This document shows, piece after piece, positions 3,157-57,594 of a DNA stretch of 64,000 nucleotides. The notes below the pieces were generated by a model, which saw nothing but the letters and a program-made list of their open reading frames with translations, had not been told where the DNA came from and ran no database searches. The DNA is from Bacilli bacterium (lineage in GTDB: Bacteria; Bacillota_I; Bacilli_A; ML615J-28; CAG-313). The translations under genes were made by a program, and so were the position numbers. Position 1 is the first letter of the stretch; every line of letters begins with the position of its first letter. The stretch is from assembly GCA_045589955.1 (NCBI GenBank), contig JAZNQD010000009.1:118814-182813 (forward strand). The letters are read 5' to 3'.

Positions 3157-4059
3157 TTATTTATATTGTGTAAGCAAATCCCTATAACCACTACAAGACG
3201 GACCATCATAATCCAAATTTAAAAAGTAATTTGCCATACACTTTAATTTAGAAGTGCAGTTTCTACAAATTTTATCTCGCTTTTTTTCCATTTCTATAAA
3301 ATAGTTATTAATTTCGTCCAAATTATCCATCTCACGCAAAGAAAAATTATTATTTTCAAAGGTTTGTACTGCGAATTTATCATTTGGAGTCATATACAAC
3401 GTTTTAACATTATAATTATCTATATTTAAAATACCTTCTAATTGTAATTTATTTTGAAAAGCAAACTTCATTTTATGAGATAATCTTAAAAACGTTCGTA
3501 CAACTTCTTCGTATTCATCATAGCCCTTAAATTTATACCTAGTATGAATTGTTTGATGAAAAGGTACAATTTCCCAAGATTTTATTTTTAGGATATTTAA
3601 TTGCTCAATAATAGCACTCTGGTCAGTTTTACAAGATATATCTAAAGATTTTACATTTATTATTTTACCCGTATCAACAGCAGCTTTAATATTTGAAAAA
3701 ACTTGTTGTTTAAATGGACTATAATCATTAAAGTTGTATTTAACATTAATAATATCACAGTTATTGATTATGCCCTTTTTAAAATTAATAAAATTAGTTT
3801 CAACAATAATTTTTTTGCAATGTATCTTTAAAATATTATAAAGCATCTCAAAATATAAATCTGAAAGTAAAGCTATTTCACCACCAGATACTTTAATTTG
3901 AGCAATATCATATTTTCGACTGATACTTGATAAACTTTCATCTAACCAAGATAAACTCATTGTATTTTGGTTTTGTTTTTCGTGACTATATAAACAAAAA
4001 CCGCAATTTTGATTACAACGATAAAGAGGAATAAGATTTACTCTAATTTGAGGTTTCAT
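3157..4059 (-). CDS. radical SAM protein with SPASM-like C-terminal Cys cluster; paralog of 23573..24481
   Basis: CNQNCGFC (CxxxCxxC) near the N-terminus, SGGEIALL glycine motif. C-terminus CRNCTSKLKC...CSGYRDLL aligns with ...CHACKYYNKC...CSGLYNLL of the 23573 ORF. Track start at 4065 is TTG; ATG at 4059 has SD GGAGA. Confidence 0.7.
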   Translation of the reverse strand: MKPQIRVNLIPLYRCNQNCGFCLYSHEKQNQNTMSLSWLDESLSSISRKYDIAQIKVSGGEIALLSDLYFEMLYNILKIHCKKIIVETNFINFKKGIINNCDIINVKYNFNDYSPFKQQVFSNIKAAVDTGKIINVKSLDISCKTDQSAIIEQLNILKIKSWEIVPFHQTIHTRYKFKGYDEYEEVVRTFLRLSHKMKFAFQNKLQLEGILNIDNYNVKTLYMTPNDKFAVQTFENNNFSLREMDNLDEINNYFIEMEKKRDKICRNCTSKLKCMANYFLNLDYDGPSCSGYRDLLTQYK

Positions 4060-4061
4060 AT

Positions 4062-4634
4062 TCAATCTCCAAAAATCATAGTTAATTTTTTAGCCAAGTT
4101 ATCTGCTGCTTTATACGCTTTTTCGCCGAACTCTTTAGTTTTTATAATAAACAATCTAGCTTGCGGATCAGACTTATCCAAATTGATTTCATACCATATA
4201 TTCTTATCTAAGAAACGACCTAATTTCTCTACATAAGATATATTTTCAACAATGAATGATACCCACAATTCTTCTTTGCCATGTCCGCAACAACTTCCTT
4301 TTGTTGTAATCCCTGGAATTAAATTTAAACTTTTTACCAAAGAGACTACTTCCGAATCTAATTCAGTAATAGGATAGTCTATATATACATCTATACCACT
4401 AAACAAATCTACATACATAGCGGTATTAAGCATATCTATACTAGTAAGCTCTTTAACGATATGTTCTGGATTAGCTTCAACGCTATACCGAGGATTACCA
4501 TCTTCTATGAAGAATAAAGTATTATCGAAACTAATCAAGCCTTGTTTTTTAGTAGATATTATTTGACCAGCCGCAAAAACTTCACCTGTTTCACGCCAAC
4601 TTAGCTTTATCCAATCACCTTCACTATAAATCAT
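4062..4634 (-). CDS. hypothetical protein
   Basis: ORF inside the radical-SAM operon. Track start at 4664 is TTG; the first ATG (MIYSEGDW) is at 4634. Confidence 0.4.
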   Translation of the reverse strand: MIYSEGDWIKLSWRETGEVFAAGQIISTKKQGLISFDNTLFFIEDGNPRYSVEANPEHIVKELTSIDMLNTAMYVDLFSGIDVYIDYPITELDSEVVSLVKSLNLIPGITTKGSCCGHGKEELWVSFIVENISYVEKLGRFLDKNIWYEINLDKSDPQARLFIIKTKEFGEKAYKAADNLAKKLTMIFGD

Positions 4635-6237
4635 TACGTACCACCCATTTACTATTAAATACAACTCTATCCATATGTGGAGTACGTTTTAAAAAGGCTA
4701 TTGCTTGTTCTGGTGTTTCTATAATCGGCTCATTCTTACCATTAAATGATGTATTAATTAAGCAAGGAATACCAGTCGCTCTATAAAACGCCATTAAAAG
4801 TGAATATAATTCTGGATTTTGCTCTTTTTCTAAACACTGTGGTCTTGTAGTCATATCGATATGACAAACTGCACTTATTTTGCGTTGCCATTCTGGTCTA
4901 ATCTTTAAAGTACGTAGCATAAATTCTGTTAAATCTTTAGATGGTGTATCAAAAACCATATCAAATAATTCAGCCGGTACAATAGGAGCTAAAGGTCTCC
5001 AGTTTTCACGATGCTTAACATAATTGTTGATTACATACAAAGCATCTCTATCCGCCGGATTTGCTAAAATAGAACGATGACCTAAAGCACGCGGACCGAT
5101 TTCGGAACCACCTTGAAACCAACCAACTACCTTACTATTACGCAATGCTAATACCAATTCGTTTTCATCATAAGCATCTGGACTTTTTTCACAAGCTGCC
5201 AAAATTTCTTCATCAGAATACGTTTGACCGACATAAGAATTTTTTAAACGTACATTGTTAATTTTATCGCCATATTTTAAAGCAGCCGAAAAAGCGTGTC
5301 CCGCTGCAACCCCGGCATCATGTGGAGCAGGTCCAGCAAATACATTTTTAAATAATCCAGATTCTACTACTAGATTATTACCTATACAGTTTTGAATACA
5401 ACCACCTGATAAAATTAAATTTTCTTCATTAGTTAATTCTTTGGCATATTTAACTACTTCCATAAATATTTCATTATAGTTTTCTTGAATAGTAGCTGCC
5501 ATATCAATATAATATAAAATATTACATTCATCTGCTGTTCTGAGAGTATATGGATAAAAATTACGTTTTAAATAATATTGCATGTTTAAAGAAGCATCTT
5601 CATTAACAATATTCGTAAAATTAGCTATTATTTCACCATTTTCCCAACGTAAAACTCTAACAGGTGTAGGTCTACCATATGAAGATAAACCCATAAATTT
5701 ACCTTCACTAAATTCACCCAAATCCGCCATTGCAACTGAAGCACTATAATACATTTTACCAAGAGACACACCCTCTGTGTATTTCTTAAGTATTTTTATC
5801 TCATTGTCTTTACAATGTGCAATAGTAATACCATCTTTACCGTCACCGTTACCATCAACAATTACCGCAACAGCACTATCAAAACCACTTTGAAAAAACG
5901 AATCACAAACATGTCCCATGTGATGATCGTAATAATAAAATTCTGGAATTTTTTTACAATTAGGGTCAATTATATCTACCACTCGTTTCGCAAACCAATC
6001 ACGTACTCTTGCTTCATGTGGTATAGCAATTACATCGATATCATCTAACGTTAAATTATTGTCTTTTAAGATTTTTTGTACAGCTAATCGTGGAAATTGT
6101 TCACCAACAGAATGCTTTAATCTATTTAAACGCTCTTCTTCTAAATTAGCGATTAATTCCCCGTCTATTACTAGTGCTGCCGAAGCATCATGATTTTGTG
6201 GACAATCAAGACTACCGCTTATTCCTAATATTTTCAT
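4624..6237 (-). CDS. carbamoyltransferase (NodU/CmcH/TobZ family)
   Basis: N-terminus ILGISGSLDCPQNHDASAALVIDGEL...EERLNRLKH matches the NodU/CmcH N-terminal Kae1-like signature (LGIS..HDsAAAL..dG...EER..R.KH). C-terminal ENWRPLAPIV and SFNGKNEPII match the CmcH C-domain. ATG at 6237 has SD AAGGGGG; the track start at 6255 is TTG. Confidence 0.7.
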   Translation of the reverse strand: MKILGISGSLDCPQNHDASAALVIDGELIANLEEERLNRLKHSVGEQFPRLAVQKILKDNNLTLDDIDVIAIPHEARVRDWFAKRVVDIIDPNCKKIPEFYYYDHHMGHVCDSFFQSGFDSAVAVIVDGNGDGKDGITIAHCKDNEIKILKKYTEGVSLGKMYYSASVAMADLGEFSEGKFMGLSSYGRPTPVRVLRWENGEIIANFTNIVNEDASLNMQYYLKRNFYPYTLRTADECNILYYIDMAATIQENYNEIFMEVVKYAKELTNEENLILSGGCIQNCIGNNLVVESGLFKNVFAGPAPHDAGVAAGHAFSAALKYGDKINNVRLKNSYVGQTYSDEEILAACEKSPDAYDENELVLALRNSKVVGWFQGGSEIGPRALGHRSILANPADRDALYVINNYVKHRENWRPLAPIVPAELFDMVFDTPSKDLTEFMLRTLKIRPEWQRKISAVCHIDMTTRPQCLEKEQNPELYSLLMAFYRATGIPCLINTSFNGKNEPIIETPEQAIAFLKRTPHMDRVVFNSKWVVRNDL

Positions 6238-6259
6238 AATACCCCCTTTAAACAATCTT

Positions 6260-7219
6260 TTAAATATACATTTCTTGAATCATTTTTTTATCACACAACA
6301 TACACGCAGGTGAATCTGAATACGATGCATATATATCATTATGTCCGCATGGTAAATCTGTAAAAGGCTCATCTTCTTCAGACTCATGTAAGGTTTCTTT
6401 ATTACGTATAAATTTACGATTTCTTTTTGTTTCTAAATTATAATTTTTACGTACTTCTTCTGCTCGTAAATCTGTACTAATTAGCTTTTCGTATTCACCT
6501 ATACCTTCTTGCTCATAAAATTTTCTTAAAAACTTCAAAAACAATTTACGACTAGGGAAGAATGGTCCAAGCACTTTATTTATTTCAGCATTTTCTAAAT
6601 GTTGTAATCCTGTCGGTTTAACCGGATTTTTCAAAAAAATCGTTGTATGATATTTTTCTCTGAAATCTTTAAATTTGAGTTTACCATCTAAGTATTCATT
6701 TATATAAGCTTCAGTTAAAATACTAGTGGTATTAATACTAACTTCAGGATATTCAGCATGTAATTTAGCTAAATGATATTCCCAAGTTTCAAACATTTTC
6801 TCAGTGTGAAATCTTCCAAAAGTATCGTATGAAGTCAAAACCCAAACATTGGCTTTATCATCTATTCTATCTAAAGTTTCATATAAATGTTTTTGATCTC
6901 CGATTAATAAAGAAGCATTTAACCATATTTTCTTTATATATTTTTTATTAAGCATATCATTTGATACATCAATCATTTCCATGAATTTATTGTAAACAGC
7001 TTCTGTATTTAATTGTCCTTGAAAGAAGTCTCCTCCAATAAAACCTAAAACTTCATGCTCATCTGGTTTAAATTCTCTTATTTCATCAATGGCTGTTTGT
7101 AAAGATTGTAATTTTAACTTTTCAGCTGTATGTAAATTATCATTGCCCAATGTACAAAAAGTACACTTACAATTACATTCTCTCCACAATTCATATTGTA
7201 ACTGTTTACTCATTGGCAT
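6260..7219 (-). CDS. radical SAM protein, family 1 (ELW..CNxKCxFC type)
   Basis: ELWRECNCKCTFC (CxxxCxxC), FIGGDFFQGQLNTEAV glycine motif, C-terminal CGH...C..CD cluster. Paralog of the 10759, 7760 and 13542 ORFs. Confidence 0.75.
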   Translation of the reverse strand: MPMSKQLQYELWRECNCKCTFCTLGNDNLHTAEKLKLQSLQTAIDEIREFKPDEHEVLGFIGGDFFQGQLNTEAVYNKFMEMIDVSNDMLNKKYIKKIWLNASLLIGDQKHLYETLDRIDDKANVWVLTSYDTFGRFHTEKMFETWEYHLAKLHAEYPEVSINTTSILTEAYINEYLDGKLKFKDFREKYHTTIFLKNPVKPTGLQHLENAEINKVLGPFFPSRKLFLKFLRKFYEQEGIGEYEKLISTDLRAEEVRKNYNLETKRNRKFIRNKETLHESEEDEPFTDLPCGHNDIYASYSDSPACMLCDKKMIQEMYI

Positions 7220-7763
7220 CTTCTTTCAATTTAATATTTATAAAATTACCTTTTTCAAAATCTTCCGTGTACATAATGCTATCAATAGTATTTGGAACCT
7301 TTTCTTTTACAACTACGCCTAAATAATCATAAACCGTTGTACTAGCTTCTTCACGCTCAGCATTTACTACCTCTAAATAACCATTCGCATTACATTCTAA
7401 GAAAATTTCAGCAAGCTTTGTATCTTTTTTAATAATTAATTCCGACGCAGTTAAATTCTGAATAAACAAACAAATTGTATCACCATCATAACAGCATCCA
7501 CCTTTAATTATATACTTTGTAGGAATAGCCACATCTTCCTCGGTATCAGATTCACCAAAAGAAACGGCTTGTCCATATTTACCTAAATACAATTCATTTT
7601 CAATATCTAAGCGCATTTTAGTATCAAAGTAAACACCTTCTCTTGCGTTTAAATGGATATCTTGTTTGGCATATAATTGTTTTCTGCTAGAATCTTCGTC
7701 TAAGCATTCATTAGATAAATATACTAAGTCTGAATCACCAAATCTAAACATCTGATCTATCAT
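7206..7763 (-). CDS. hypothetical protein
   Basis: 185 aa. ATGA overlap with the upstream gene. No motif recognised. Confidence 0.45.
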   Translation of the reverse strand: MIDQMFRFGDSDLVYLSNECLDEDSSRKQLYAKQDIHLNAREGVYFDTKMRLDIENELYLGKYGQAVSFGESDTEEDVAIPTKYIIKGGCCYDGDTICLFIQNLTASELIIKKDTKLAEIFLECNANGYLEVVNAEREEASTTVYDYLGVVVKEKVPNTIDSIMYTEDFEKGNFINIKLKEDANE

Positions 7764-8686
7764 AAATAAGCATCCCTATCTAAATTATTTAAATCACATA
7801 ATACACACTTATCGCTGTCAGCATAGCATTTATATAAGATACTGTGTCCGCATTTTTCATTTATTACTTCTTTACCGTCAGATAATACCGGTTGAGCTGT
7901 TAAATCTGCAGTGTCTCTATCTTGTAAACCAGTATATTTAAACGTACAAGAATTTTTAGTAGATTGTAAAAAGTTATAATAGACTTCACTACAATTTGTT
8001 CTTAAATACTTCATAAATTCCAAAAAATCTACACGTTTGAAATTAAAATCTGTCAATTTAAAGCCTGTTTTTATGGGATGCGGATACAAAAATGTTAAAA
8101 TATTACCAGGGATAAATTCTTTCGTAAACTGATTTACTTCAAATTTACCTTCTTTCCAAGCATCGATTAAATATTGAGTAAGAATCATTTGAACGCCTAC
8201 TCTGTAATTATATCTTTTATGGAAATCATTAATATTATTTAAACACAATAACCTAGATTCCTCATCTTTAAAGCGATATTTTAAATCATACGAAAAGTTA
8301 ATATCTACCTTATCAATACCAACTGCATCCACAATCCTATCAACAACTCTATATAAAAACGTTGGATCATACAAACCATTGGTAACAGTTGAGTACTTAC
8401 AATATGGATTTGGGGAAACTTTTAATACTTTTTCAATAATGATATCAATTAACTCAATAAAAGAATCTTGTAATTTTTTATCAGTAATATAATAAAGCTC
8501 ACCACCAAGTAAAGATATACCGTTCGAGAATTTATCTTTAAAATCAATGTAGTTAATATTTTCTTTTATTTTATCTAATAGTACAAACTGTTTCTTTTTT
8601 GAATACGGAATTCTATCTGCACGTAAACAAAACTTACAGGCATTACAACAATTAGACCACACTGAATATTGTATCATATTAGACAT
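7760..8686 (-). CDS. radical SAM protein, family 1
   Basis: SVWSNCCNACKFC, LLGGELYY, C-terminal CGHSILYKCYADSDKCVLCD. SD GAGAG upstream. Confidence 0.75.
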   Translation of the reverse strand: MSNMIQYSVWSNCCNACKFCLRADRIPYSKKKQFVLLDKIKENINYIDFKDKFSNGISLLGGELYYITDKKLQDSFIELIDIIIEKVLKVSPNPYCKYSTVTNGLYDPTFLYRVVDRIVDAVGIDKVDINFSYDLKYRFKDEESRLLCLNNINDFHKRYNYRVGVQMILTQYLIDAWKEGKFEVNQFTKEFIPGNILTFLYPHPIKTGFKLTDFNFKRVDFLEFMKYLRTNCSEVYYNFLQSTKNSCTFKYTGLQDRDTADLTAQPVLSDGKEVINEKCGHSILYKCYADSDKCVLCDLNNLDRDAYL

Positions 8687-8688
8687 TA

Positions 8689-9711
8689 TTATTCTCTCAT
8701 TCTGTTTATAGCCAAATTCTTATTTATAATTTTTAACAATAGTTTTAAACCTTCTAAAGCCTTTTCTTTTGGGTGTCTAACAAATTCTTGATAACGAATA
8801 CGAATAAAGCCCATATAATTATCATGTTCACTCACACGAATTTTGTAACTATCAAGTTTGTCCCATTCGGCTTGTGTATATTTCATACCTTTAGTTTCAA
8901 TAGAAAAAATGTGGTCAACCGTTTGTGAATATAATCTAAACACTGAAGTATCTGCCACCAATTTACTGAAATACTGTATCATTATATTTTTAAATAGACT
9001 CATCTTATAACGATTTTGTAAAATGATATCCAAACGTCTAAGATATTCTTTGGCCCAATTATACGCTTTAATACCATAACCGTCTTCTTTAGTTATCATC
9101 ATTCCCATATCGTATTCAGGTACTAAAGAATGGGCAGTATATAAAACATAATCGTAAATTGAATAATCACGAGGTAACAAAAACATACCATGTACGTCGT
9201 CAATCATTATTTTGAAATTTACATTGTGTTCTTCTAATTCTTTTTTTAACTCAACATAAAAGTTTTGAGGTGTTATTTCACCAGTAGATAGCTGTGTACC
9301 AATAATATATACAAATACTTTTTTATAACCTTTTGTTTTTTGTACGATTTCTTTTGTCTTATATGAACGAATATCCTGTTCTGATTGTACAAATAACACA
9401 TTCTTACAATTTTCTAAGCATTTACGTACTGAACCATGCTCATATTGAGTAGAAATCACTAAGGTATCATCATCAACTTCTCTTTCAAATACTTGTTCGA
9501 TTAATGCGGTTCCACTATCATCAAATACCAAGTTTCTATCATGTATAGATACATTAGCAAATGGCATTCTGTTAAAATATTCTTGACACAAAGCCAAATA
9601 TTGCTCATCAGAAACAATTTCTGGTTCACCAGTTCTGCCTATACCTAGAAGTTCATTTTCTTCTTCACTAAACGGTTGAAAATCCAAATACCATTTAATC
9701 AATTCATCCAT
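8689..9711 (-). CDS. PLP-fold (class V aminotransferase / cysteine desulfurase-like) paralog A
   Basis: Motif string IIGTQLSTGEITP ... IMIDDVHGMF ... DYVLYTAHS resembles the fold-type-I pattern h..ETGhi.P ... hDavQs.G ... D.hs.SgHK (recalled from memory). The Schiff-base Lys position reads S. Track start is GTG at 9720; ATG at 9711 has SD GAAGGTG. Confidence 0.35.
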   Translation of the reverse strand: MDELIKWYLDFQPFSEEENELLGIGRTGEPEIVSDEQYLALCQEYFNRMPFANVSIHDRNLVFDDSGTALIEQVFEREVDDDTLVISTQYEHGSVRKCLENCKNVLFVQSEQDIRSYKTKEIVQKTKGYKKVFVYIIGTQLSTGEITPQNFYVELKKELEEHNVNFKIMIDDVHGMFLLPRDYSIYDYVLYTAHSLVPEYDMGMMITKEDGYGIKAYNWAKEYLRRLDIILQNRYKMSLFKNIMIQYFSKLVADTSVFRLYSQTVDHIFSIETKGMKYTQAEWDKLDSYKIRVSEHDNYMGFIRIRYQEFVRHPKEKALEGLKLLLKIINKNLAINRMRE

Positions 9712-9712
9712 A

Positions 9713-10759
9713 TCAGTCACCTTCTACAACTTGTTGTATAAAATCATCAGTTAAACTACTAGTCAAAGCTTTATCGATAATTTTTAAGCACTTAGGCAAC
9801 AAAGAATCATTATTTATAAACCAATGACTACGTAAAGAAATAAAACCTTCCCCATCAGTATCTGTTGTAATCAATAAATTTATTTTATTACACAATGCAA
9901 CACTATTTTCAGAAATATTAAACTCTTTTAAACGTAAATAAAATATATAAGGTGCAACTAATTCTCGTGATATTTTATCTAAGTTTTTTATATATTTACT
10001 GTAATATTGAATGCACAATGCTCTAAACAAATTAAATTTATTTGCACGTGATATCACAATTTCTAACCGTTTTAAATACAATTCACCCCAATTATAAGCG
10101 TTTATCCCTAGAAATTGTTGCTTACTAATTAGAATTCCCATATCAAAACCCATACAAACAGCATGAGCAGTACCTATTACGTAATCAAATAAAGTATAAT
10201 CACGTGGAATTAAAAACATACCTTGTACATCATCAAGTATTAGAATATGTTGTACATCATTTTTAATAAAAAGATTTTTCAACTCTACAAAAAACTCTTG
10301 AGGTGTTATTTCACCGGTAGCATTTTGAGTCCCAATTATATAAACAAATACTTTTTTATATTGTTTAATGCTCTGCTGTATTTTATGAAAATTAAATGCT
10401 CGAATATCATTGTATTGATTTATTTCCAAAACATTTTTATACTCATTTATAATATTTTTAACACTTGGATGTTCAGCATTGCTAGTAATAATTAAAGTAT
10501 CTTCATCGACATATTTTGCAAATAATTTCTTTATAAACGTAGTAGCAGATACCTCGAAAGTCAAAAAACTATTATTGATCGTACAATTTGAAGCAAGCAT
10601 CTTGTCAAAAAATCTCATAGATACACTTTTAAAAGCTTCGGTATTAAATTTTGGCTCGATATAACTTTTTTCAGACAAGTCATGTGATAAATTTGTCTTA
10701 ACGATTTCTTTATCAACATCACTTAAAGGTAAATATGTATTCCACCAGTTTAAAAGCAT
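9713..10759 (-). CDS. PLP-fold-like paralog B
   Basis: Paralog of 8689..9711 (IIGTQNATGEITP ... ILDDVQGMF ... DYVIGTAHA). Track start at 10762 is TTG; ATG at 10759 overlaps the upstream stop (TGATG). Confidence 0.35.
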   Translation of the reverse strand: MLLNWWNTYLPLSDVDKEIVKTNLSHDLSEKSYIEPKFNTEAFKSVSMRFFDKMLASNCTINNSFLTFEVSATTFIKKLFAKYVDEDTLIITSNAEHPSVKNIINEYKNVLEINQYNDIRAFNFHKIQQSIKQYKKVFVYIIGTQNATGEITPQEFFVELKNLFIKNDVQHILILDDVQGMFLIPRDYTLFDYVIGTAHAVCMGFDMGILISKQQFLGINAYNWGELYLKRLEIVISRANKFNLFRALCIQYYSKYIKNLDKISRELVAPYIFYLRLKEFNISENSVALCNKINLLITTDTDGEGFISLRSHWFINNDSLLPKCLKIIDKALTSSLTDDFIQQVVEGD

Positions 10760-11706
10760 CAAATCTCTAAGTCCCGTATCATTTGTTTATCGCATATCGC
10801 ACATTTATTACTATCAATATATGCACTATAAACAGATAAATGCCCACAATCCATGATATAATCTATTCTCGGATTATATGTTTCTGTACCATTTTCTTTA
10901 TTTCTATTTACTACTGCATCATGTTCTTCATACTCACAAATTAATGTATCTGCACGATATTGAATATTGAACAATTTGTCATAAAAAGCTAAACCTTCTT
11001 CTCGCTTTACTTTCTTTAAAAAACGTAAGAAGGCATCACGTTTCGGAAAAAAGTTACCGAGTACTTGATTTGTATGCTCTTTTGAAATATACATACCTTC
11101 TGGACCAGCACACAATTTAACAAACATCGAAGTATTATATGTTGACATTAAATTTTTAAATGAAAATTCATCTGCCAGATATTTGTCTATTAAATCGCCG
11201 GTTATAATTGTAGTTGTATTAAACTTTATTTTGGGATAGAGTTTTCCTATATTCAACATATGATATGACCAATTATCTTCCATTTTTTTAGTATGAAAGC
11301 GTCCCATTGTATCATATGAGGTTAATAACCAAAAATTATCCTGATAATCTTTGAAAATATCTAAAGTGGTATATAAATCAGTTTGTTCGCCTATTGTAAG
11401 TGTTGCATATAGCCAAGTTGTTTTTATGTAACCAGCTTTCATCAAATCGGCGGTCGTTTGCATTAATTCAAAAAATTTATTCTTTACAGCCTCTGTATTT
11501 AACTGTCCTTGAAAAAATTCACCGCCAATAAAAGCAATAGTATCATACTCCTTATAAATATCTAAATTTTTTATTGTAGATAAGGCTTTTTCTAAATTAT
11601 ACAGCTTTGTTTCTTCCGAAGTAAATCTATTTGTATTACCTAAGTAACAAAAAGTACATTTAGAGTTACATTCTTTCCATAATTCAAATTGTAATTGCTT
11701 TCCCAT
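10759..11706 (-). CDS. radical SAM protein, family 1
   Basis: ELWKECNSKCTFC, FIGGEFFQGQLNTEAV, C-terminal DCGHLSVYSAYIDSNKCAICD. Confidence 0.75.
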   Translation of the reverse strand: MGKQLQFELWKECNSKCTFCYLGNTNRFTSEETKLYNLEKALSTIKNLDIYKEYDTIAFIGGEFFQGQLNTEAVKNKFFELMQTTADLMKAGYIKTTWLYATLTIGEQTDLYTTLDIFKDYQDNFWLLTSYDTMGRFHTKKMEDNWSYHMLNIGKLYPKIKFNTTTIITGDLIDKYLADEFSFKNLMSTYNTSMFVKLCAGPEGMYISKEHTNQVLGNFFPKRDAFLRFLKKVKREEGLAFYDKLFNIQYRADTLICEYEEHDAVVNRNKENGTETYNPRIDYIMDCGHLSVYSAYIDSNKCAICDKQMIRDLEI

Positions 11707-11708
11707 AT

Positions 11709-12626
11709 TTAATTTCCATATAATTTAAAAAACATTTGTGCAACATCATACATCTTGTTATTAGAATCTATGAAGCCTATATCATATTTTTTAGTTTTAT
11801 CACTTAATTCACATCTACCGTCGCCGCTTCGTCTATCTTCTGCTACTCTAACTTTACCATTTTCTATAAAAAACAATGTGTTAGACCTCAATTCCATAGA
11901 CAAAAAAGAATCTCTATTAATCAAATCTTTATGAATAGCTTTCTTTAAAAATTTCAAAAAAGTTTCTTTTTTAGGAAAAAACCCCGGCAAATCCTTTTCA
12001 CAAGCATATTTATCTACATAATATAAGCCAGAAGAAGGCTCTATGTAATCAACTGAAGTATTAAACACTTCTTTAAAGGCTTTTAAATCAAATTCATCAT
12101 TTAATACAGCATTTAAAAACCATTCTGTTAAAATAATTTCAGTATGAAGACGTAACTCTGGATAGTTATCTTTTAAAAATAACATATTACGCTTCCACAA
12201 TTCTTTATGTTCTTGAGTTTTAAATCTATACTTGACATCAAAAGAGGTACATAATACAATTTTATCTAATAATTGTATTTTACGTAAATAATCCAAAAAT
12301 GGTATTAAATCAATATTAATATCGTAGATTAATGCCGCGGTTATGTATATCTTTGAAAAATTAAGTTTAGATACATCATAAAATAAATTATAAAAAACAG
12401 GCTTTATAAGTGGATCTAATTCGCCATTGAAAAATTCACCACCAATAAAGCCTATCTCATCGTGTTTTATGATTTGTAACTCTTTTAATTTAGCCGTAAT
12501 AAACTGTAAAGATTGTAACTTATCAATTTTAGGTTGACCTTTATTACAACAAAATTTACAACCTATCTTACAATCTTTCCATAATTCAAATTGAACAAAT
12601 GTATTTTCATTTTTAAAATTAGTCAT
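11709..12626 (-). CDS. radical SAM protein, family 1b (no C-terminal Cys cluster)
   Basis: ELWKDCKIGCKFC, FIGGEFFNGEL. The C-terminus lacks the CGH..C..CD motif. Close paralog of 12619..13542. The printed sequence differs from the track by 1 nt near the start. Confidence 0.7.
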   Translation of the reverse strand: MTNFKNENTFVQFELWKDCKIGCKFCCNKGQPKIDKLQSLQFITAKLKELQIIKHDEIGFIGGEFFNGELDPLIKPVFYNLFYDVSKLNFSKIYITAALIYDINIDLIPFLDYLRKIQLLDKIVLCTSFDVKYRFKTQEHKELWKRNMLFLKDNYPELRLHTEIILTEWFLNAVLNDEFDLKAFKEVFNTSVDYIEPSSGLYYVDKYACEKDLPGFFPKKETFLKFLKKAIHKDLINRDSFLSMELRSNTLFFIENGKVRVAEDRRSGDGRCELSDKTKKYDIGFIDSNNKMYDVAQMFFKLYGN

Positions 12627-13542
12627 TTACAAGCTTACACAATTCAGTTGCTATATCTTCCATAGAATCTTCGGAATCAATAAAACCTAATTCATATTTT
12701 TTAGATGTATCCCTACATTTTACTCTAAAACCTGGTTCACGTCTATCTTCATAACAAACGAAATCCCCACAATCTAAGTGATATATTCTACTTGCTCTGA
12801 TTTGATACGAAATTAAGCAGCTTAAGTCTATTTCTTTGTTTTTTAAACCAGCTTTCTTTAAAAATTCAATAAAACTTTTCTTTCTTGGAAAAAATCCAGG
12901 ACAAGCTTTTTCACAGTCCGCTTTTGTATTATAGTACATACCAGAAGAAGGTTCGATATAATCTACACGTGTTCTATATTTTTCACAAAACTCTTTAATA
13001 CTAAACGTATCATTTAATACTGCATCAATAAAATGTTGCGTCATAATAGTTTCAACATGTGTCTTTAAATCAGGATAATCTTTTAATAAAGCAAGCATAT
13101 TACTTTCCCATAACTCTTGCTTACCAGGTATATTAAAACGATATTTTAAATCATAAGAAGTACACAATAAAACCTTATCCATTATATTAATTTTACGCAA
13201 ATAATCTAAAAATGGCAATAAATACGGTTTCATATCATAAATTAAAGATGTAGCAACATAAATTTTATTAAAATGCATTCCTGCTAATTTATCTATTAAC
13301 TTATAAAATAATGCTCTAACTTCTTCATTTTCGATTTGATTATCAAATATTTCTCCACCGATAATACCTACTTCTTCATAATCAAATACTTCTGGATCAT
13401 CTAATTTATTTAACGTAAACTCTAATGCCCATTTTTTATCAACGGACATTTGACAACGCTCTGAACAAAATTTACAGCCATTTCTACAATCTTGCCATAG
13501 CTGATATTGAATAAACTTATTAGGTGCAATATATCTTTCCAT
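12619..13542 (-). CDS. radical SAM protein, family 1b
   Basis: QLWQDCRNGCKFC, IIGGEIFDNQ, YIEPSSGMYY region shared with the 11709 ORF. TAATG start/stop overlap. Confidence 0.7.
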   Translation of the reverse strand: MERYIAPNKFIQYQLWQDCRNGCKFCSERCQMSVDKKWALEFTLNKLDDPEVFDYEEVGIIGGEIFDNQIENEEVRALFYKLIDKLAGMHFNKIYVATSLIYDMKPYLLPFLDYLRKINIMDKVLLCTSYDLKYRFNIPGKQELWESNMLALLKDYPDLKTHVETIMTQHFIDAVLNDTFSIKEFCEKYRTRVDYIEPSSGMYYNTKADCEKACPGFFPRKKSFIEFLKKAGLKNKEIDLSCLISYQIRASRIYHLDCGDFVCYEDRREPGFRVKCRDTSKKYELGFIDSEDSMEDIATELCKLVND

Positions 13543-14408
13543 TACGCATACTCACTAAATACATCTAATAAATCACAACAGAAGCAGGTATTTTTTTCTG
13601 AATATCTTTTAAAGTTAACAGAATGCCCACAATCAGACATTGCGCAACTACAAAACTGAAATTCGTTATCTTTATACATATAAAGCCATTTTTCTTGTGT
13701 TATGGTCATGTTTGGCACATATTTAGCTAGATAGCCAGGTAAATCTAAATCTACGCGTTTAAGGGCTTTAAAAATGGCATTACGAGGAGCAGTTAATTCA
13801 GAATCTAAAACTATATAAGGTATTAAATTAATCCAACATTTATATTCAGCTGTAAATTCACTTAATTTAAAATTGCCATCTAAAATTTCTTGACAAACCT
13901 TTTTTGTAAGAATTGTATTTGTAACTATATTACATTTAGGATATACTCGATTAATCCATTTTAAATTAGATAGCATCAATTGTCTATCATCTTCAGTTCT
14001 GAATCTTCCTTCTAAATCATATGATGTAGTAAATTTAAGTCTATCAAATAAATTACATTTGGATATCATATTAAGCATGGAATTTAAACCGGTTAAATCT
14101 TTATAGATTAAGTTAGTATTTATATATAACAAATCTATAATACCAACTTCCATCAATCCAACGATTTGATTAAAAAATTCTTCTAAAGCATTGAAATCAC
14201 TAGGTTTATCAAATATCTCACCACCACAAATGAGTATATGACTACCTTTTATGAATTTATCACTATCTATAAATGATAAAACTTCATTTAAAATAAATTT
14301 TCTTTTTTCTTGATTGTATAAACGGGGTTTTTCGCGTTGGAAACAAAACTTACAATTATTATTACAGTTATCCCAAACGAGAAATTCATAAATCTTTTTA
14401 TATTTCAC
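13542..14408 (-). CDS. radical SAM protein, family 1
   Basis: LVWDNCNNNCKFC, ICGGEIFDKP, C-terminal CAMSDCGHSVNF...CFCCD. Start is GTG at 14408, preceded by GGGGGG. Confidence 0.7.
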   Translation of the reverse strand: MKYKKIYEFLVWDNCNNNCKFCFQREKPRLYNQEKRKFILNEVLSFIDSDKFIKGSHILICGGEIFDKPSDFNALEEFFNQIVGLMEVGIIDLLYINTNLIYKDLTGLNSMLNMISKCNLFDRLKFTTSYDLEGRFRTEDDRQLMLSNLKWINRVYPKCNIVTNTILTKKVCQEILDGNFKLSEFTAEYKCWINLIPYIVLDSELTAPRNAIFKALKRVDLDLPGYLAKYVPNMTITQEKWLYMYKDNEFQFCSCAMSDCGHSVNFKRYSEKNTCFCCDLLDVFSEYA

Positions 14409-14428: not shown

Positions 14429-15001
14429 TTAATCCGCGGATAATGTAACCGAATATCTACAAGGTTGAATTCTAAACGTATGTTTTATTACATTCATCAA
14501 ACTATTTATAATATCATTTACATCTTGAGCAGTATCTAAACGAAAATATAAATCTATATCGGCATCTAATATCTTAATAGAAGGATAAGTTGTATTGCCA
14601 GTGTAATAAACTAAATATTTATTAGTGTTAAATTGACTAACTGTAAAACAGAATTTGGTACTACAAAAAGAAACCATGTCGTTTATAAAATTAATAAATT
14701 CGCGTGGTGGAATATTCGTATTTAGTTTTGTATCCACTTTTATCGTTTTTAAGAAATTAGTCATATCAGTATCAATAGTGGCACCGGTAACTTTAGCAAT
14801 AGATTTTGTAATAGTGTGTGTACAATATCCGTTTACACCAGCTTTTTTACCGTTATTAGAAATAATCACTTTATTACTATATCCAGATTTAAATTCTGCT
14901 GGTAAAGAATTATATTTATTATCTACGTTTTGACAATTGGTTTTAGCGTAGTTTTTTACCAGATTAACTATTGTATTGTATGTAATATTTCCTATTGGCA
15001 T
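14429..15001 (-). CDS. family-B paralog (untailed) of the Ser-tailed proteins
   Basis: Starts MPIGNITYNTIVNLVKNYAKTNCQNVD...LPAEFKSGYS; paralogous to the 16988 ORF and to the N-terminal cores of the 15002 and 17529 ORFs. Its ATG directly abuts the stop of 15002..15691 (TAAATG). Confidence 0.6.
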   Translation of the reverse strand: MPIGNITYNTIVNLVKNYAKTNCQNVDNKYNSLPAEFKSGYSNKVIISNNGKKAGVNGYCTHTITKSIAKVTGATIDTDMTNFLKTIKVDTKLNTNIPPREFINFINDMVSFCSTKFCFTVSQFNTNKYLVYYTGNTTYPSIKILDADIDLYFRLDTAQDVNDIINSLMNVIKHTFRIQPCRYSVTLSAD

Positions 15002-15691
15002 TTAAATATCCATATAAGCAATAAATGTAGATGAACTAGAAGAACAGCTTGAGCTTGATGAAGATGAAGATGAGGAACTAGAAGAACTCGAACTTGAACT
15101 AGAATAAGTTAAAAGAGTATTTGCATAGTGAATGTTCGATGTGTTGTTAACAGCGGCAAGTAACTCATTTACACTAGTTTGTATTTCTGTTGCACTAAAA
15201 TCTATATCATCATGACGTAAAGACACTGTTGAAAAATTACTAGCGTCATCATCGTAAAAGATAAATGTTCCTGCCCCAAAACTATTTGTAACAGCAATCA
15301 ACTTAACAGCCAAAAAAGATGCAAAGTTATTATAAAAATTCATAATACCTTTGAAAGACACAATTTCAGTCGGTTTAGTTGCAATTCCACGTAATTTCAA
15401 AAAGGAATTAAGTTGATTTTTTACAGTAGATGTAGAAACAACTTGCAACTTTGGATCATTAACTTGAGAATGTTGAATTAATGTCTTGGTTGTACGGGTA
15501 AAGTTACTATTTCTACCACCTATGACAAAAGCCACGGCCGTTGTTTTATTATTCCAACTATATCCGTGTTGTAATTGTTTTGGTACATCACTTCTAAACT
15601 TATCAATATTACAGCATTTACTCAAAATATATGATTGAGCACTATCTAATAAATCTTGATAAGTAATTGTATTATTGCTCTTTATCGCCAT
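15002..15691 (-). CDS. family-A protein with C-terminal poly-Ser/Cys tail (putative modification substrate)
   Basis: 229 aa ending ...[37 protein letters not shown] GAGGG upstream. N-terminal core shares the ITY...C.N.D...GYS pattern with the family. Confidence 0.7.
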   Translation of the reverse strand: [229 protein letters not shown]

Positions 15692-16400
15692 TAAAAAGTC
15701 CCTCTAAAAAGCCATCTAATAAAGTTACAGAGACAATACTCTTGCTTTGTAAAGCAATGATACATTCAATAGCATTATCTAAGTAAACACATTCTTCTGT
15801 AGAAAACTTTTCGGATACAGAAAAAATACCAGAAAGAGTTAACAAATCAGTTGACATGAAAATTGTACGATAAATCTTAGGTAATGGAATATGCGTATCT
15901 AACGGTGTATAAGTTGTTTTATTATAAGATTTAAACAACGAAATGAAATAAATACTTAACTGACGAATAAATTTGTTTAAACTAGATTGTAATTCAAGTT
16001 TTAAATCTAACAAATCTTCAATAGATGATACATAAATATTTTCATCATCAAAAAAGTCATCTTCTAAAGTATTATACAATTTAATCAAGTTAATAATATT
16101 CAAAATCATCAATGGATCACACAAATCTTCACGATTCATTGACATTTCGAAAATTCTAACCAAAGTTTCAAGTTCAACACCTTTAAGGAATAATTTAACA
16201 TTATTTCTTGCAAGTTCCGTTAACTCTGTTTCTAAACAATAAAGCTTTTCTAAAAATGGTATAATATCCATAACTTCAACGTATTTATCTACTCTAATTT
16301 CAATAAATTCATTTTCAGCAAAAGAAATTCCTTTAGTTCCTTCAACTAAAGTTTTAATATCATCACGAATTGCTTCATAGTTACGTAAATTTTCAGTCAT
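15672..16400 (-). CDS. hypothetical protein
   Basis: 242 aa. Strong SD AAGGAG. Confidence 0.5.
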   Translation of the reverse strand: MTENLRNYEAIRDDIKTLVEGTKGISFAENEFIEIRVDKYVEVMDIIPFLEKLYCLETELTELARNNVKLFLKGVELETLVRIFEMSMNREDLCDPLMILNIINLIKLYNTLEDDFFDDENIYVSSIEDLLDLKLELQSSLNKFIRQLSIYFISLFKSYNKTTYTPLDTHIPLPKIYRTIFMSTDLLTLSGIFSVSEKFSTEECVYLDNAIECIIALQSKSIVSVTLLDGFLEGLFNGDKEQ

Positions 16401-16447: not shown

Positions 16448-16975
16448 TTAAGCCTTAGGAAAACCAGCCAAGTATTCATCATAAATTTCTGAAATATCAA
16501 ACTTATTATCAGATACCGTCAATCTAGTGTTTATAAAATCATAATGGTAAATATATACAGAATCACGATATTTTAAAGCAGATTTTGCATCGTCTTTCCA
16601 CTTTTTAACAGAAGAATTATACCAAGATATCATAGTATAAATATTATCATAACCATATTTATTACTAAATTTTAATAAAGCATCTTCAATATAATTTTCA
16701 GCTTGTATAATAAAGTTATGATATACGATTTCTTTATCTAGCTTATTTTGTTGAGCTTCTATTTCATTAATAACTGAGTTTTTTAATACAATTTTACCTT
16801 TAAATTCAACAAAATCTTCATTAGTAGCGTATATATCTTTACCGTACCATTCTAAATTATCTTTATCTGCAACGTATTTTTCTGCTAATTTTAAAGAAGG
16901 TACCCACTGAATATTTCCAGTCGAATCAATAATATAAAATTTGTCAGCGTTTTTATAATCCCCAAGAATAGACAT
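16448..16975 (-). CDS. hypothetical protein
   Basis: 175 aa. SD AAAGGAG. Confidence 0.5.
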   Translation of the reverse strand: MSILGDYKNADKFYIIDSTGNIQWVPSLKLAEKYVADKDNLEWYGKDIYATNEDFVEFKGKIVLKNSVINEIEAQQNKLDKEIVYHNFIIQAENYIEDALLKFSNKYGYDNIYTMISWYNSSVKKWKDDAKSALKYRDSVYIYHYDFINTRLTVSDNKFDISEIYDEYLAGFPKA

Positions 16976-16987
16976 ATTTTCTCCTTT

Positions 16988-17527
16988 TTATGCCAATGTT
17001 ACGCTATATGTACAAACATACGGTCTAATATTTTGTCTTACCACACTTGTTATAAAATTAATTAAAGTTGTAATATCTGCATCATCAATAAGTCGATAAG
17101 TGGTAGTCGTAGTAATATTCTTTAGTGATGAATAAGTAGTATTTCCTGTTAGATATACCATGTAATTTGTAGTTGAATATTGACTAGCTGCTACTCCAAT
17201 TTTAGTACTACAGAATGAAATGATATCCTCAACGAAATTTAAAAATTCGTTTGCTACAATATTAGTATTTAGTTTATCATTTACCTTTATTGTCGTTAAA
17301 AAATTCGTCATATCTGTAGCAACTGTTGTACTAGCTACTTGAGATACGCCTTTTGAAATTGTAACTGTAGACTTAGCGTTTGTAGTGATTGTTGTTACTA
17401 CACTATATCCTGTTTTAAAACAAGCCGGTAAGTTAGCAATGGTTGTATCAAAATTCATACAATTTGCCAAGATCCAACTTTTAACGTGCTCAACTACAGT
17501 ATTATAAGTTATTGCACTAAGAGCCAT
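16988..17527 (-). CDS. family-B paralog (untailed)
   Basis: Starts MALSAITYNTVVEHVKSWILANCMNFD...LPACFKTGYS; paralog of 14429..15001. Follows the 17529 ORF with a one-base gap. Confidence 0.6.
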   Translation of the reverse strand: MALSAITYNTVVEHVKSWILANCMNFDTTIANLPACFKTGYSVVTTITTNAKSTVTISKGVSQVASTTVATDMTNFLTTIKVNDKLNTNIVANEFLNFVEDIISFCSTKIGVAASQYSTTNYMVYLTGNTTYSSLKNITTTTTYRLIDDADITTLINFITSVVRQNIRPYVCTYSVTLA

Positions 17528-17528
17528 T

Positions 17529-18209
17529 TTAGATATCCATATAAGCTATAAACGTAGAAGAACTAGAAGAACAACTTGAACTACTCGAGCTTGATGAAGA
17601 CGAAGAGCTAGAAGAAGAGCAACTTGAACTATAAGATAGCATTACGTTTACTAAGCGATGTTGAATTGGTTTATTGATACAGTTTAACAAATCAGTAAAT
17701 GATACCTTTATTTGATCAGCCGTAAAGTTTGCATCTGCTGGAGTTAAATTACTTAAAGTTGGAAAATTAGTTGCTTCACTATTATAGAAAACGTATTTAT
17801 TATTTGAATAAGCACTTGTTAAAAAAACTACTTTGGTTGCAATAAATGCCGAAACAACATTACAAAAAATCATTAAATTTTTAAATGAAATCAATTCGCC
17901 AGTATTATCTGCAATTCCATTTGAAGTAAGAAAAGAATTAAATTGAGAATTAACTGTAGAAGATGGTACTGCTTTTAAAATTGTATCGTTTACCGTAGCA
18001 GTAGCTGTTAATGTAAATGTACCTGTTGTACTATTACCCGTTACATATGATACTTCCTTACTAGCCACTTGCCAAGAACTATTATTTACAAAAGCACTAG
18101 GTAAACCAGATGGAAGTGCATCAATATTTTGACAAACCTTTTTAATCTGAGTTAATACAGCATCAACAGCGTCTTTATATTTAATCGTTTGTCCTGTTGC
18201 GAGAGACAT
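17529..18209 (-). CDS. family-A protein with C-terminal poly-Ser/Cys tail (putative modification substrate)
   Basis: 226 aa ending ...[37 protein letters not shown]. The last 14 residues are identical to those of 15002..15691. First gene of the minus-strand operon. Confidence 0.7.
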   Translation of the reverse strand: [226 protein letters not shown]

Positions 18210-22507: not shown

Positions 22508-23585
22508 TATTCCTTCAGAAAATAGATTTGGTTTTGATTGCTTACTTTTCGAGGCTTGTAATTTAAATTGTACGTTTTGTTTAGAAGCACATAATAATAC
22601 TAAAATTGATTATAATTGGATTCAGTCTATTCCTTTACGTCTAGTAGAAAGATTTAAAAAAGAATATGTAAAATTTCCAAATACTAAATTGATTACTATT
22701 AGATTATGGGGTGGAGAACTGTTTTATGATGCTTTACCAGATTCAATATTCCAAGTATATACAGATTTAGTACAATCTTTTATTACTGAATTTGGAATAG
22801 CCTTTCCTGATATTACACTTTCATTTGCTTGGGTATCAAACGGGGTATTCACAAAAACAGAGCGCTTAATTAAATTATTAAAAAACACAAATAGTCTGTT
22901 AAATATTAGTTACGACCCGGTTGGCAGATATAAGACTAAAAAACAAGAAGAATTAATGTTAGCTAATTGTAAATTATTTACGGACTTAAATCTCTTAGAT
23001 GAAATTTCAATAACTTTAACCAAACCTAATATTCAAGCTTATATTACTAATAAATCTAGATTATTTGATCTTAATTTTGTAAAAAAGATAGATATTAATT
23101 ACTATATACCAAATCCACTTTGGAAAGAATTATTACCAAATGATGAAGATTTGTTTATGTTTTTTAAATGGTGTGCCGATAATAGATTTTTTACAATTTT
23201 AGATTTTAAACGAGTTTTAGATACTTTAACTAAACCAAATGAAAAAGTAGAATTAGTATGTAATTGTCATAAACATCTATCTGCTTGTAAAGACTGTATT
23301 ACCTATAATTGTGTTACAAGCTCTTCTATTTTACCACAAAACCTATTTTATGATAAATATACAAATGAAATAAACGAAGATAATGTTAGTGATATAAAAC
23401 GTAAATTAAGTTTGCATAAAAGAGGTTGTTTATTCTGTGAATATGCTAACATTTGTCCTAAAATCTGTTGGACTTCAATTTTATTTAAAGAATATATAGC
23501 AACAGAATGCCCAATGCAACGTTTATATAAATATCTACAAGACAATAAACAAATATTAGAGGATTATAAAAAATGGAGTTATTAA
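22500..23585 (+). CDS. radical SAM / SPASM-like protein, family 2a
   Basis: EACNLNCTFC, WGGELFYD, RGCLFCEYANICPKICWTSIL. SD AAGGTGG. Confidence 0.75.
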   Translation: MINIPSENRFGFDCLLFEACNLNCTFCLEAHNNTKIDYNWIQSIPLRLVERFKKEYVKFPNTKLITIRLWGGELFYDALPDSIFQVYTDLVQSFITEFGIAFPDITLSFAWVSNGVFTKTERLIKLLKNTNSLLNISYDPVGRYKTKKQEELMLANCKLFTDLNLLDEISITLTKPNIQAYITNKSRLFDLNFVKKIDINYYIPNPLWKELLPNDEDLFMFFKWCADNRFFTILDFKRVLDTLTKPNEKVELVCNCHKHLSACKDCITYNCVTSSSILPQNLFYDKYTNEINEDNVSDIKRKLSLHKRGCLFCEYANICPKICWTSILFKEYIATECPMQRLYKYLQDNKQILEDYKKWSY

Positions 23586-24481
23586 ACGGTTTATCTATAA
23601 TGCCCTCTTTATATTGTAACTATAACTGTGAGTATTGCTATTTAGGGGATTTAAGAAAAAACAAAACTCTTTTAGATTTAGATATACTCGCTAATCGTTT
23701 AAATGAAATAACACAAAACTATACAATTCAACATACAACTTTATATGGTGGTGAAATATCTCTATTACCACAAACATACTTAAATGATTTATTGCAACTT
23801 GTAAAAGATTATAATCCAGCGTTTGTAACAAATTTATCCCAAGAATGGTTTTTAAATTACTGCTTAATAAACAATGTTAAACTTAGTATATCGTTAAATG
23901 AAGAAAGAACCAATTACAATAAAACGTTGCAGATTCTTAAGACGTTAAAAGGTATTAAATCAATTTGTTTATCTGTTGTTGTTTTACCTAGTTTACTAAA
24001 GAAAGATTCTTTTGAAATTCTAGATTTTTTTGAAGATTTAGGGTTTGATGTTATTTTTATTCAATATCACCCTTCTATTCATTCTAAAGTCGTTTATAAT
24101 ATCACAACAAAAGATTACAGTGATTTTTTATTACGTATCCTAAAAGCTAAATACGAACGCGACTACAAATTCAAAATACAAAATGAGATTGTGCTTAGAG
24201 ATACAACATACCGAGCAACGGCTGACAGTTTTATGTTTATTAATCAAAATGGTAATTTCAGTTCAATTAAATATAACGAGAAAGAAGAAGAATATTTCGT
24301 AGAATTTAATACTTTACAAGAATGGAAAGACTTTTGTAAGCAAGAACAAAAACTATATTATACAAAGTGTCATGCTTGTAAATATTATAATAAATGTAAA
24401 GCTGAACATTTAGTCAATCTAGAAAAAGATAATTGTTCAGGTCTATATAATTTATTAGAAGAATATTCACAAATTGGATAA
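23573..24481 (+). CDS. radical SAM / SPASM-like protein (paralog of 3157..4059)
   Basis: LYCNYNCEYC, YGGEISLL, C-terminal CHACKYYNKC...CSGLYNLL. SD AGAGGA. Confidence 0.75.
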   Translation: MELLNGLSIMPSLYCNYNCEYCYLGDLRKNKTLLDLDILANRLNEITQNYTIQHTTLYGGEISLLPQTYLNDLLQLVKDYNPAFVTNLSQEWFLNYCLINNVKLSISLNEERTNYNKTLQILKTLKGIKSICLSVVVLPSLLKKDSFEILDFFEDLGFDVIFIQYHPSIHSKVVYNITTKDYSDFLLRILKAKYERDYKFKIQNEIVLRDTTYRATADSFMFINQNGNFSSIKYNEKEEEYFVEFNTLQEWKDFCKQEQKLYYTKCHACKYYNKCKAEHLVNLEKDNCSGLYNLLEEYSQIG

Positions 24482-24487
24482 CAAGAG

Positions 24488-25882: not shown

Positions 25883-25884
25883 AT

Positions 25885-34652: not shown

Positions 34653-34655
34653 TAC

Positions 34656-57215: not shown

Positions 57216-57229
57216 TTTATTTTATCTCT

Positions 57230-57592: not shown

Positions 57593-57594
57593 TT

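Follow-up and report, generated by a model that had tools for sequence, protein, structure and literature searches.

A class III carbamoyltransferase gene recurrently embedded in a phage radical-SAM cassette beside Ser/Cys-tailed proteins

Introduction

Carbamoyltransferases of the class III (NodU/CmcH/TobZ) type tailor aminoglycosides, coumarins, ansamycins, Nod factors and cephalosporins from within bacterial gene clusters. In TobZ and GdmN, the YrdC-like C-terminal domain forms carbamoyl-AMP from carbamoyl phosphate and ATP. The structure of GdmN revealed a catalytic base, H27, and four iron ligands, H133, H137, D156 and D333, which are conserved across class III (PMC9633730). StdF, a NodU-like carbamoyltransferase from a Streptomyces cluster for a ribosomally synthesized peptide with post-translational modifications (RiPP), modifies Lys of the ribosomal peptide (bioRxiv 2026, PMC13174530), and a phage-encoded NodU-like enzyme carbamoylates 5-hydroxymethylcytosine (5hmC) (eLife 2021, PMC8670742). 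Here we describe a carbamoyltransferase (CT) encoded in a 64,000-nucleotide stretch of contig JAZNQD010000009.1 (assembly GCA_045589955.1, filed under Bacilli bacterium; positions 118,814 to 182,813), the whole of which we call the window. The CT lies in an operon of radical S-adenosylmethionine (radical-SAM) genes that also encodes proteins with Ser/Cys-rich C-terminal tails. It is an intact class III enzyme that would serve as an optional tailoring component of this cassette, and we tentatively regard a hydroxyl group of the tail as its most likely acceptor.

The window is AT-rich (~29% GC) and represents phage DNA, with GroES/GroEL (34308-36302, + strand), a portal-sized gene, tail fibers and a lysozyme-like gene. 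No tRNA genes were found in it.

Results

The carbamoyltransferase and its catalytic residues

The CT gene runs on the minus strand from an ATG at 6237 to a TAG at 4624 (4624..6237) and encodes 537 aa. The listing of open reading frames (ORFs) gave 4624..6255 with a TTG start; the ATG at 6237 is the better start because AAGGGGG is found ~6 nt upstream and because the database protein P0001, which is 99% identical, has the same length of 537 aa. These are exactly the coordinates of the original prediction, a reading of the letters alone that had proposed a NodU/CmcH-type carbamoyltransferase, and all of the motifs that it quoted (MKILGISGS..NHDASAALVIDGELIANLEEERLNRLKH, HRENWRPLAPIVPAEL and NTSFNGKNEPIIETP) are present in the translation.

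The family assignment is borne out by both diagnostic domains, joined in a single polypeptide as a Kae1-like N-terminal and a YrdC-like C-terminal domain: Pfam Carbam_trans_N (PF02543) matches at 1.7e-31 (110 bits; cutoff 24) and Carbam_trans_C (PF16861) at 9.9e-57 (192 bits; cutoff 27), the latter over positions 3-168 of a 170-position profile. The best sequence matches in the PDB are NovN (2.3e-64, aligned over CT residues 20-533), GdmN (3.6e-64) and TobZ (3.9e-63), and the best PHROG match is PHROG 1601, 'Nol-like carbamoyltransferase' (8.6e-101). The CT is not a NodU orthologue, since the NCBIfam NodU equivalog NF041651 scores 139 bits (2.2e-40) against a cutoff of 1000 and covers residues 261-501 only. 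Neither does it belong to class II: HypF enzymes have four domains, among them an acylphosphatase and a zinc finger, and score above the cutoff of their model, whereas the match of the CT to that model is short and partial and reaches 15 bits where the cutoff is 466 (E 0.0049).

In the HMMER alignment, CT residues H22, H111, H115, D134 and D313 align with GdmN H27, H133, H137, D156 and D333, so that the catalytic His and all four metal ligands are conserved; the original prediction had singled out the Kae1-like metal ligands for checking. No substitution of H111, H112, H115, D134 or D313 occurs among 30 clade members with 36-62% identity, and at least 90% of these proteins keep H22. The carbamoyl-AMP-forming motifs of the YrdC-like half are equally well kept in these 30 proteins: GPRAL-x-x-RS (387-395; GPRALGHRS in the CT), K414, R416, R420-P-x-A-P and NTS-x-N (501-505; NTSFN in the CT) are all invariant, these motifs being judged by conservation. 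The CT is thus to all appearance a genuine, intact and apparently active class III carbamoyltransferase, with no sign in its sequence of a pseudo-enzyme.

Coupling to the radical-SAM operon and recurrence across loci

The CT gene is one of 18 minus-strand genes in an operon that extends from 18209 to 3157, in which neighboring genes overlap or are separated by gaps of at most 47 nt. The radical-SAM gene directly upstream (6260..7219, a member of the family that we label F1) stops 22 nt before the CT start, and the following gene, F6, begins (ATG at 4634) before the CT gene has ended, an 11-nt overlap that takes in the CT stop. Beyond F6 is a second-type radical-SAM gene (3157..4065), and both genes for Ser-tailed proteins of family F2 (17529..18209 and 15002..15691) are located 5' of the CT on the same strand. 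The CT therefore does lie between radical-SAM genes and downstream of the Ser-tailed genes, as originally described.

This arrangement recurs. In at least 12 separate loci, CTs with 31-62% identity to the window enzyme are embedded among F1 radical-SAM genes, with Ser/Cys-tailed proteins alongside; the contigs that carry the relatives with 48-62% identity reach 285 kb in length. Gene order in L123 is the same as in the window. L001 has two complete cassettes, in both of which a tailed protein is accompanied by a separate CT. The order in L004/L005 is F7, tailed F2, partner, radical-SAM, CT, radical-SAM, F4, radical-SAM, F6. In L124, from Hadza human gut, one CT, and in L125 two CTs, are situated among radical-SAM genes with tailed proteins adjoining. 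The same embedding is seen in the IMG/VR loci L007, L010 and L075 (CT identity 34, 37 and 31%, respectively), and in L102, L107 and L121, which came from radical-SAM scans; in L121 it occurs twice, with the tails out of range. Overlaps of 4 nt between the CT and an adjoining radical-SAM gene are seen in L001, L004 and L124. A scan of IMG/VR for close relatives with the single CT protein gave no match, but an alignment query did find relatives. Among the best 80 IMG/VR CT loci, 3 contain F1 radical-SAM genes and the same 3 contain tails, whereas the remaining 77 have neither. In a neighbor-joining tree the cassette-linked CTs occupy branches next to the window enzyme, and the cyanophage-type loci are placed elsewhere.

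A different picture of the frequency of the CT is obtained when cassettes are anchored on the radical-SAM protein. This set comprises 36 loci, 28 from IMG/VR and 8 from mis-binned contigs of metagenome-assembled genomes (chicken, rabbit, buffalo rumen and other samples). A tail is encoded in 32 of the 36, F7 in 29, F4 in 19, F6 in 7 and a CT in 6. With tails in 32 but a CT in only 6 of these cassettes, the CT is an optional tailoring enzyme rather than a core part, and the tails would be matured without it in most of the phages. The functional link between the CT and the tailed proteins that the original prediction proposed is accordingly upheld in part, as an association: it is recurrent and the synteny conserved, but the CT is accessory, being absent from 30 of 36 cassettes, and not a core step. 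The CT is strongly associated with the cassette, optional, and sometimes duplicated.

The cassette is found on 140-310 kb phage contigs from gut samples of human, chicken, rabbit and ruminant. Its constituents are F7, one or two tailed F2 proteins and between four and eight divergent radical-SAM enzymes; the Lys-less aminotransferase-like F4 is often present too. In L007, a 231-kb IMG/VR phage contig, genes for a DegT aminotransferase (4e-68), an FdtA ketoisomerase (6.5e-47) and two family 2 glycosyltransferases (GT2) lie at 3994-7538 between the radical-SAM genes and the CT. No match was found among the INPHARED cultured-phage records, either to the anchor radical-SAM protein (tblastn) or to a 14 kb structural region (megablast), and the literature that we searched on radical SAM with phage, polyserine or carbamoyltransferase did not describe the cassette.

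The Ser/Cys tails

The two tails of the window are S19-C-S5-TFIAYMDI (15005..15103, in the product of 15002..15691) and SSSCS(15)CS(5)TFIAYMDI (17532..17630, in the product of 17529..18209). They are encoded by all six Ser codons in mixed order, which rules out a DNA triplet-repeat artifact and indicates selection on the protein and not a DNA repeat. Word-indexed homology searches for the tailed protein retrieved only 1 and then 5 proteins; an exhaustive HMMER profile search assembled an F2 family of 391 clusters at E<=1e-3. Among the best 150 of these 391 clusters, 66 are tailed. Their Ser/Cys runs are 6-52 residues long, with a median of 20, and across the 66 representatives they are followed by a conserved ending, x(F/Y)I(A/G/V)(Y/F)(M/F)x(I/L). 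The poly-Ser tails of the original prediction are thus real as Ser-rich tails, but not as pure poly-Ser: across the family they are Ser/Cys-rich, with Cys in 64 of 66 and a median of 3 per tail. Tail size differs between close relatives, since P0121, 94% identical to the tailed protein of 17529..18209, has an 11-residue run compared with 27. No tail feature that separates cassettes with a CT from those without was seen in a comparison by eye.

The N-terminal domain of F2 was modeled with AlphaFold2 (AF2; 17529..18209) at moderate confidence (predicted local distance difference test, pLDDT, 74.7), and the fold has no significant match in the PDB or BFVD. Its top matches are tail terminator and tail completion proteins, but their values (E 0.15-0.4, TM below 0.25) provide no evidence of a likeness. 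A 640-aa protein without a Pfam match, encoded at 3257-5179 in L010, carries the same Ser/Cys tail and ends in IFIAYFNI; the tail module is therefore not limited to the ~190-aa carrier domain.

Gene content of the window operon

Read from 5' to 3', all on the minus strand, the operon begins with the first tailed F2 protein (226 aa, 17529..18209), its short untailed F2 homologue (179 aa, 16988..17527), F13 (175 aa, unknown, 16448..16975) and F7 (242 aa, unknown, 15672..16400), which stands ahead of a tailed gene in 29 of the 36 cassettes. The second tailed F2 protein (229 aa, 15002..15691) and its short partner (190 aa, 14429..15001), an untailed homologue of the tailed protein, are followed by four consecutive F1 radical-SAM paralogues (13542..14408, 12619..13542, 11709..12626 and 10759..11706) and two class-V-aminotransferase-like F4 paralogues of 349 and 343 aa (9713..10762 and 8689..9720). 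Then come the most conserved F1 paralogue, which served as scan anchor (7760..8686), F12 (185 aa, unknown, 7206..7763; conserved in L001 and L123), and the F1 enzyme directly upstream of the CT, a protein of ~300 aa with CxxxCxxC and a C-terminal CGH..Y..Y.DS..C..CD. Downstream of the CT are F6 (190 aa, 4062..4634), weakly TYW3/UPF0130-like and with a T-x-GSC-x-GH motif, and the second-type radical-SAM protein, which has CxxxCxxC and a Cys-rich C terminus and is a paralogue of the product of 23573..24481. No glycosyltransferase or sugar-nucleotide gene was recognized in the window operon or in its closest synteny partner, L123. Scans for promoters and terminators yielded sites no more frequently than in shuffled sequence.

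Directly downstream of the cassette is an SbcC/Rad50-like ATPase (window 421-2283, minus strand), and in L123 an SbcC/Rad50-like ATPase is followed by a metallophosphatase (SbcD-like) gene (10306-13220). A ribosomal protein S21 homologue (L125, 5873-6073) and a Thg1-like tRNA-His guanylyltransferase (L004, 20554-21363) are encoded near other copies of the cassette.

Partner enzymes

The F1 proteins contain CxxxCxxC and a GGE motif, and most of them the C-terminal motif described above. Their Pfam and NCBIfam matches are weak and generic for radical SAM. An AF2 model built from six window paralogues (pLDDT 67.8) has as its nearest PDB structures those of EpeE, a peptide epimerase (E 6e-4, TM 0.37), and of CteB, a sactisynthase (TM 0.48), a modeled likeness that is suggestive of peptide-modifying radical-SAM enzymes. 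The second-type radical-SAM protein has N-terminal matches to MoaA, HxsC and the YydG epimerase (E 1e-7 to 4e-5).

Two of the 19 F4 members reach Pfam Aminotran_5 (best 1.2e-5), and the F4 profile found no match among PDB sequences. E94-H95, D174 and T195-x-H197 are invariant in the 19 members. The position of the Schiff-base Lys for pyridoxal 5'-phosphate (PLP) is Ala or Ser in all 19, although the ring of PLP would still find its binding His and Asp. Loss of the Lys with retention of PLP-ring-binding residues is seen in enzymes that depend on pyridoxamine 5'-phosphate (PMP) and act on carbonyl substrates.

F6 is a weakly supported candidate methyltransferase, judged by its sequence: the top three matches of its profile in the PDB are archaeal homologues of TYW3, a tRNA-wybutosine methyltransferase (E 0.08-0.44), all seven members match Pfam TYW3 below cutoff (best E 0.0018), and T-x-GSC-x-GH is invariant in the alignment. 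A role for F6 as a dedicated partner of the CT was ruled out, since it occurs in 7 cassettes without a CT.

A second island and other features of the window

A second, divergently transcribed radical-SAM island occupies 18275-27862 (+) and contains seven radical-SAM or SPASM-like genes, the last of them DynA/PapB/anSME-like (E 1e-16 to 1e-13). These seven genes flank on both sides a gene for a protein of 226 aa (24488-25168), the last residues of which are ...YTCHQNCHSSCHSSRGRR, together with two orphan genes (25169-25882 and 25885-26889) whose homologues adjoin the Ser/Cys-tail cassette in L093. The island may represent a second precursor type. Elsewhere in the window, two adjacent tail-fiber-like paralogues of 519 and 672 aa (55656-59613, minus strand) have long internal segments in common that are nearly identical, pointing to diversification of receptor binding, and a 929-aa acidic protein (47730-50519, +) contains two repeated CxWCG...CxxC zinc-ribbon-like modules.

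Discussion

The CT belongs to class III, retains the catalytic residues of its family, is coupled into the operon and recurs embedded in the cassette; we infer that it is active, that the tail is its substrate and that oxygen is the acceptor atom. By analogy with TobZ and GdmN, its YrdC-like domain would form carbamoyl-AMP from carbamoyl phosphate and ATP, and the iron and His base of its Kae1-like domain would pass the carbamoyl group to an acceptor nucleophile. In the cassette of these jumbo phages of gut and rumen, where its tailoring role is optional, it might carbamoylate a tail hydroxyl, either Ser O-gamma or a hydroxyl kept or created by radical-SAM processing, and the product would be O-carbamoyl (+43 Da) adducts on the tail. 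Hydroxyl-acting enzymes, the CT and the GT2s of L007, are recruited to the cassette repeatedly. Because the Ser run is the most constant candidate acceptor, because the recruits act on hydroxyls and because the window has no sugar pathway, a tail hydroxyl is the simplest explanation, and Ser O-carbamoylation is its simplest, plausible form.

Several observations weigh against this proposal. The characterized close relatives of the CT all act on small molecules or sugars. To our knowledge O-carbamoyl-serine is not found in any ribosomal protein, and no sequence feature identifies the acceptor of the CT. A CT lies within 10 kb in just 6 of the 36 radical-SAM-anchored cassettes. Conversely, the CTs of L002/L003, L122 and L006 have neither a radical-SAM gene nor a Ser-rich ORF within 10 kb; those of L002/L003 and L122 form one subclade with the order GroES-GroEL-CT-head fiber. 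The contigs of L002 and L122 (ENA ERZ28614040 scaffold_6 and ERZ28653836 scaffold_53) measure 270-285 kb, and that of L006 measures 41.7 kb. The pairing of the CT with the DegT, FdtA and GT2 genes in L007 points to a sugar as the acceptor in that locus. Taken together, the absence of the CT from 30 of 36 cassettes, the three clade members outside the cassette and the sugar genes of L007 make sugar, amine and thiol acceptors possible.

An unlikely but serious rival is that the CT carbamoylates a sugar or small molecule, for example a glycan on the Ser tail or another component of the virion or host surface, so that the tail is not the direct acceptor. It owes its seriousness to L007 and to the GroEL-adjacent subclade, where the CTs of L002 and L122 are near GT2/Stealth and head-fiber genes with no cassette, and it agrees with the substrates of the nearest characterized relatives. 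The sugar genes of L007 also hint that in some phages the tails are O-glycosylated with an amino-deoxyhexose. What speaks against a sugar acceptor as the general case is that neither the window operon nor L123 contains a glycosyltransferase or sugar-nucleotide gene, and that most CT-containing cassettes have only radical-SAM, F2, F4 and F7 genes.

It is improbable that the acceptor is on the tail yet is not a hydroxyl, being either a Cys thiol or an amine, the latter of Lys or derived from Ser by radical-SAM oxidation and F4. HypF carbamoylates the C-terminal Cys of HypE, and both the near-universal Cys of the tails and the weak partial HypF match of the CT are in keeping with a thiol; the tail of the CT-containing L004/L005 cassette, however, has no Cys at all, so that a Cys thiol is unlikely to be a general target. 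For an amine, there is the precedent of the NodU-like StdF, which makes homocitrulline on a peptide (PMC13174530), and F4 displays a pattern seen in PMP-dependent enzymes, with the Schiff-base Lys missing in all 19 members. The amine route is nonetheless conjecture: the tails contain no Lys and offer no obvious amine site, and F4 (19 of 36 cassettes) and the CT (6 of 36) are not coupled.

A role in hypermodification of the phage genome, as a DNA or RNA 5hmC carbamoyltransferase like the MetaGPA enzyme, is very unlikely. Such a phage NodU-like enzyme does exist, and the window is part of a genome, elsewhere in which a dCMP hydroxymethylase could lie. The CT, however, is 24% identical to the 5hmC enzyme (pairwise E 2e-12), compared with ~1e-64 for NovN, GdmN and TobZ. 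The positions of TobZ W408, G421 and R423 are reported to discriminate modified contigs (PMC8670742), and by spacing, which is how the numbering was mapped, the CT would have the TobZ-like W379/G392/R394 where the 5hmC enzyme has I/C/T. No thymidylate-synthase-like gene was found in the window with an E. coli ThyA query, which was validated by a 1e-77 match in locus L033. Lastly, the CT gene is translationally coupled within the radical-SAM operon. Placement of the CT with the TsaD/Kae1-type tRNA t6A (N6-threonylcarbamoyladenosine) enzymes, the alternative that the original prediction had raised against itself, is favored by the Kae1-like fold that the N-terminal domain shares with the superfamily. 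It can be dismissed in that no TsaD/Peptidase_M22 model in Pfam or NCBIfam matches at E<=0.01 and both carbamoyltransferase-specific domains lie far above cutoff in one polypeptide.

If we return to the tail hydroxyl as acceptor, a broader and more doubtful scenario can be sketched, in which the cassette would be a new kind of phage protein maturation: as many as eight radical-SAM enzymes would rework Ser/Cys tails of 20-50 residues, which interchangeable tailoring enzymes would go on to decorate. The carbamoyltransferase, the TYW3-like methyltransferase and the glycosyltransferases are candidates for the latter, with the CT installing O-carbamoyl-serine, possibly many per tail. Should the tail be the acceptor, enzymatic O-carbamoylation would be seen here for the first time on a serine of a ribosomal protein. 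Cassettes with and without the CT offer a natural comparison in which mass spectrometry could look directly for the modification. A large orphan system, with the 391 clusters of F2 and a cassette undescribed in the literature that we found, also gains a handle.

The window CT has in common with TobZ, NovN, GdmN, NodU and CmcH the two-domain architecture, the iron ligands, the catalytic His and the YrdC-like motifs. Unlike those enzymes of bacterial clusters it is phage-encoded and sits among radical-SAM genes by Ser/Cys-tailed proteins, and at 537 aa, compared with 682 aa, it is missing the C-terminal dimerization domain of GdmN. StdF resembles the proposed system in that a ribosomally made peptide is modified within a multi-enzyme maturation cluster, and if the tail is the acceptor the CT would join StdF as only the second known case of a NodU-like enzyme with a peptide substrate. 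StdF, however, is fused to an S8/S53 peptidase, has YcaO/TfuA and MNIO partners and targets a Lys amine, whereas the CT has no peptidase fusion, no Lys in the tail, radical-SAM partners and a phage host. The phage 5hmC carbamoyltransferase is likewise phage-encoded and of the same superfamily; it differs from the CT in its low identity and its discriminating residues, and a thymidylate-synthase-like neighbor is missing from the window. The PHROG 1601 genes of cyanophages and pelagiphages (P-SSM2, S-CAM1 and HTVC008M) have 28-32% identity to the CT. Both the radical-SAM family and tailed proteins are missing from all 77 IMG/VR loci of this type that were examined, and these fall on separate branches of the tree.

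The cassette as a whole may be compared with radical-SAM RiPP systems, such as YydG/EpeE, the sactipeptide and ranthipeptide synthases and polytheonamide, in which, as here, a C-terminal core is encoded next to several radical-SAM enzymes. No RiPP recognition element (RRE), protease or transporter/exporter was recognized by domain searches of the cassette proteins. The carrier is a folded domain of ~190 aa where RiPP carriers are a short leader, and unlike the radical-SAM RiPP systems the cassette is phage-borne, its core is almost a homopolymer of Ser and Cys, and its paralogous maturases number as many as 8. The annotation of the CT is itself ordinary, that of a known family; what is new is its context and its probable substrate class.

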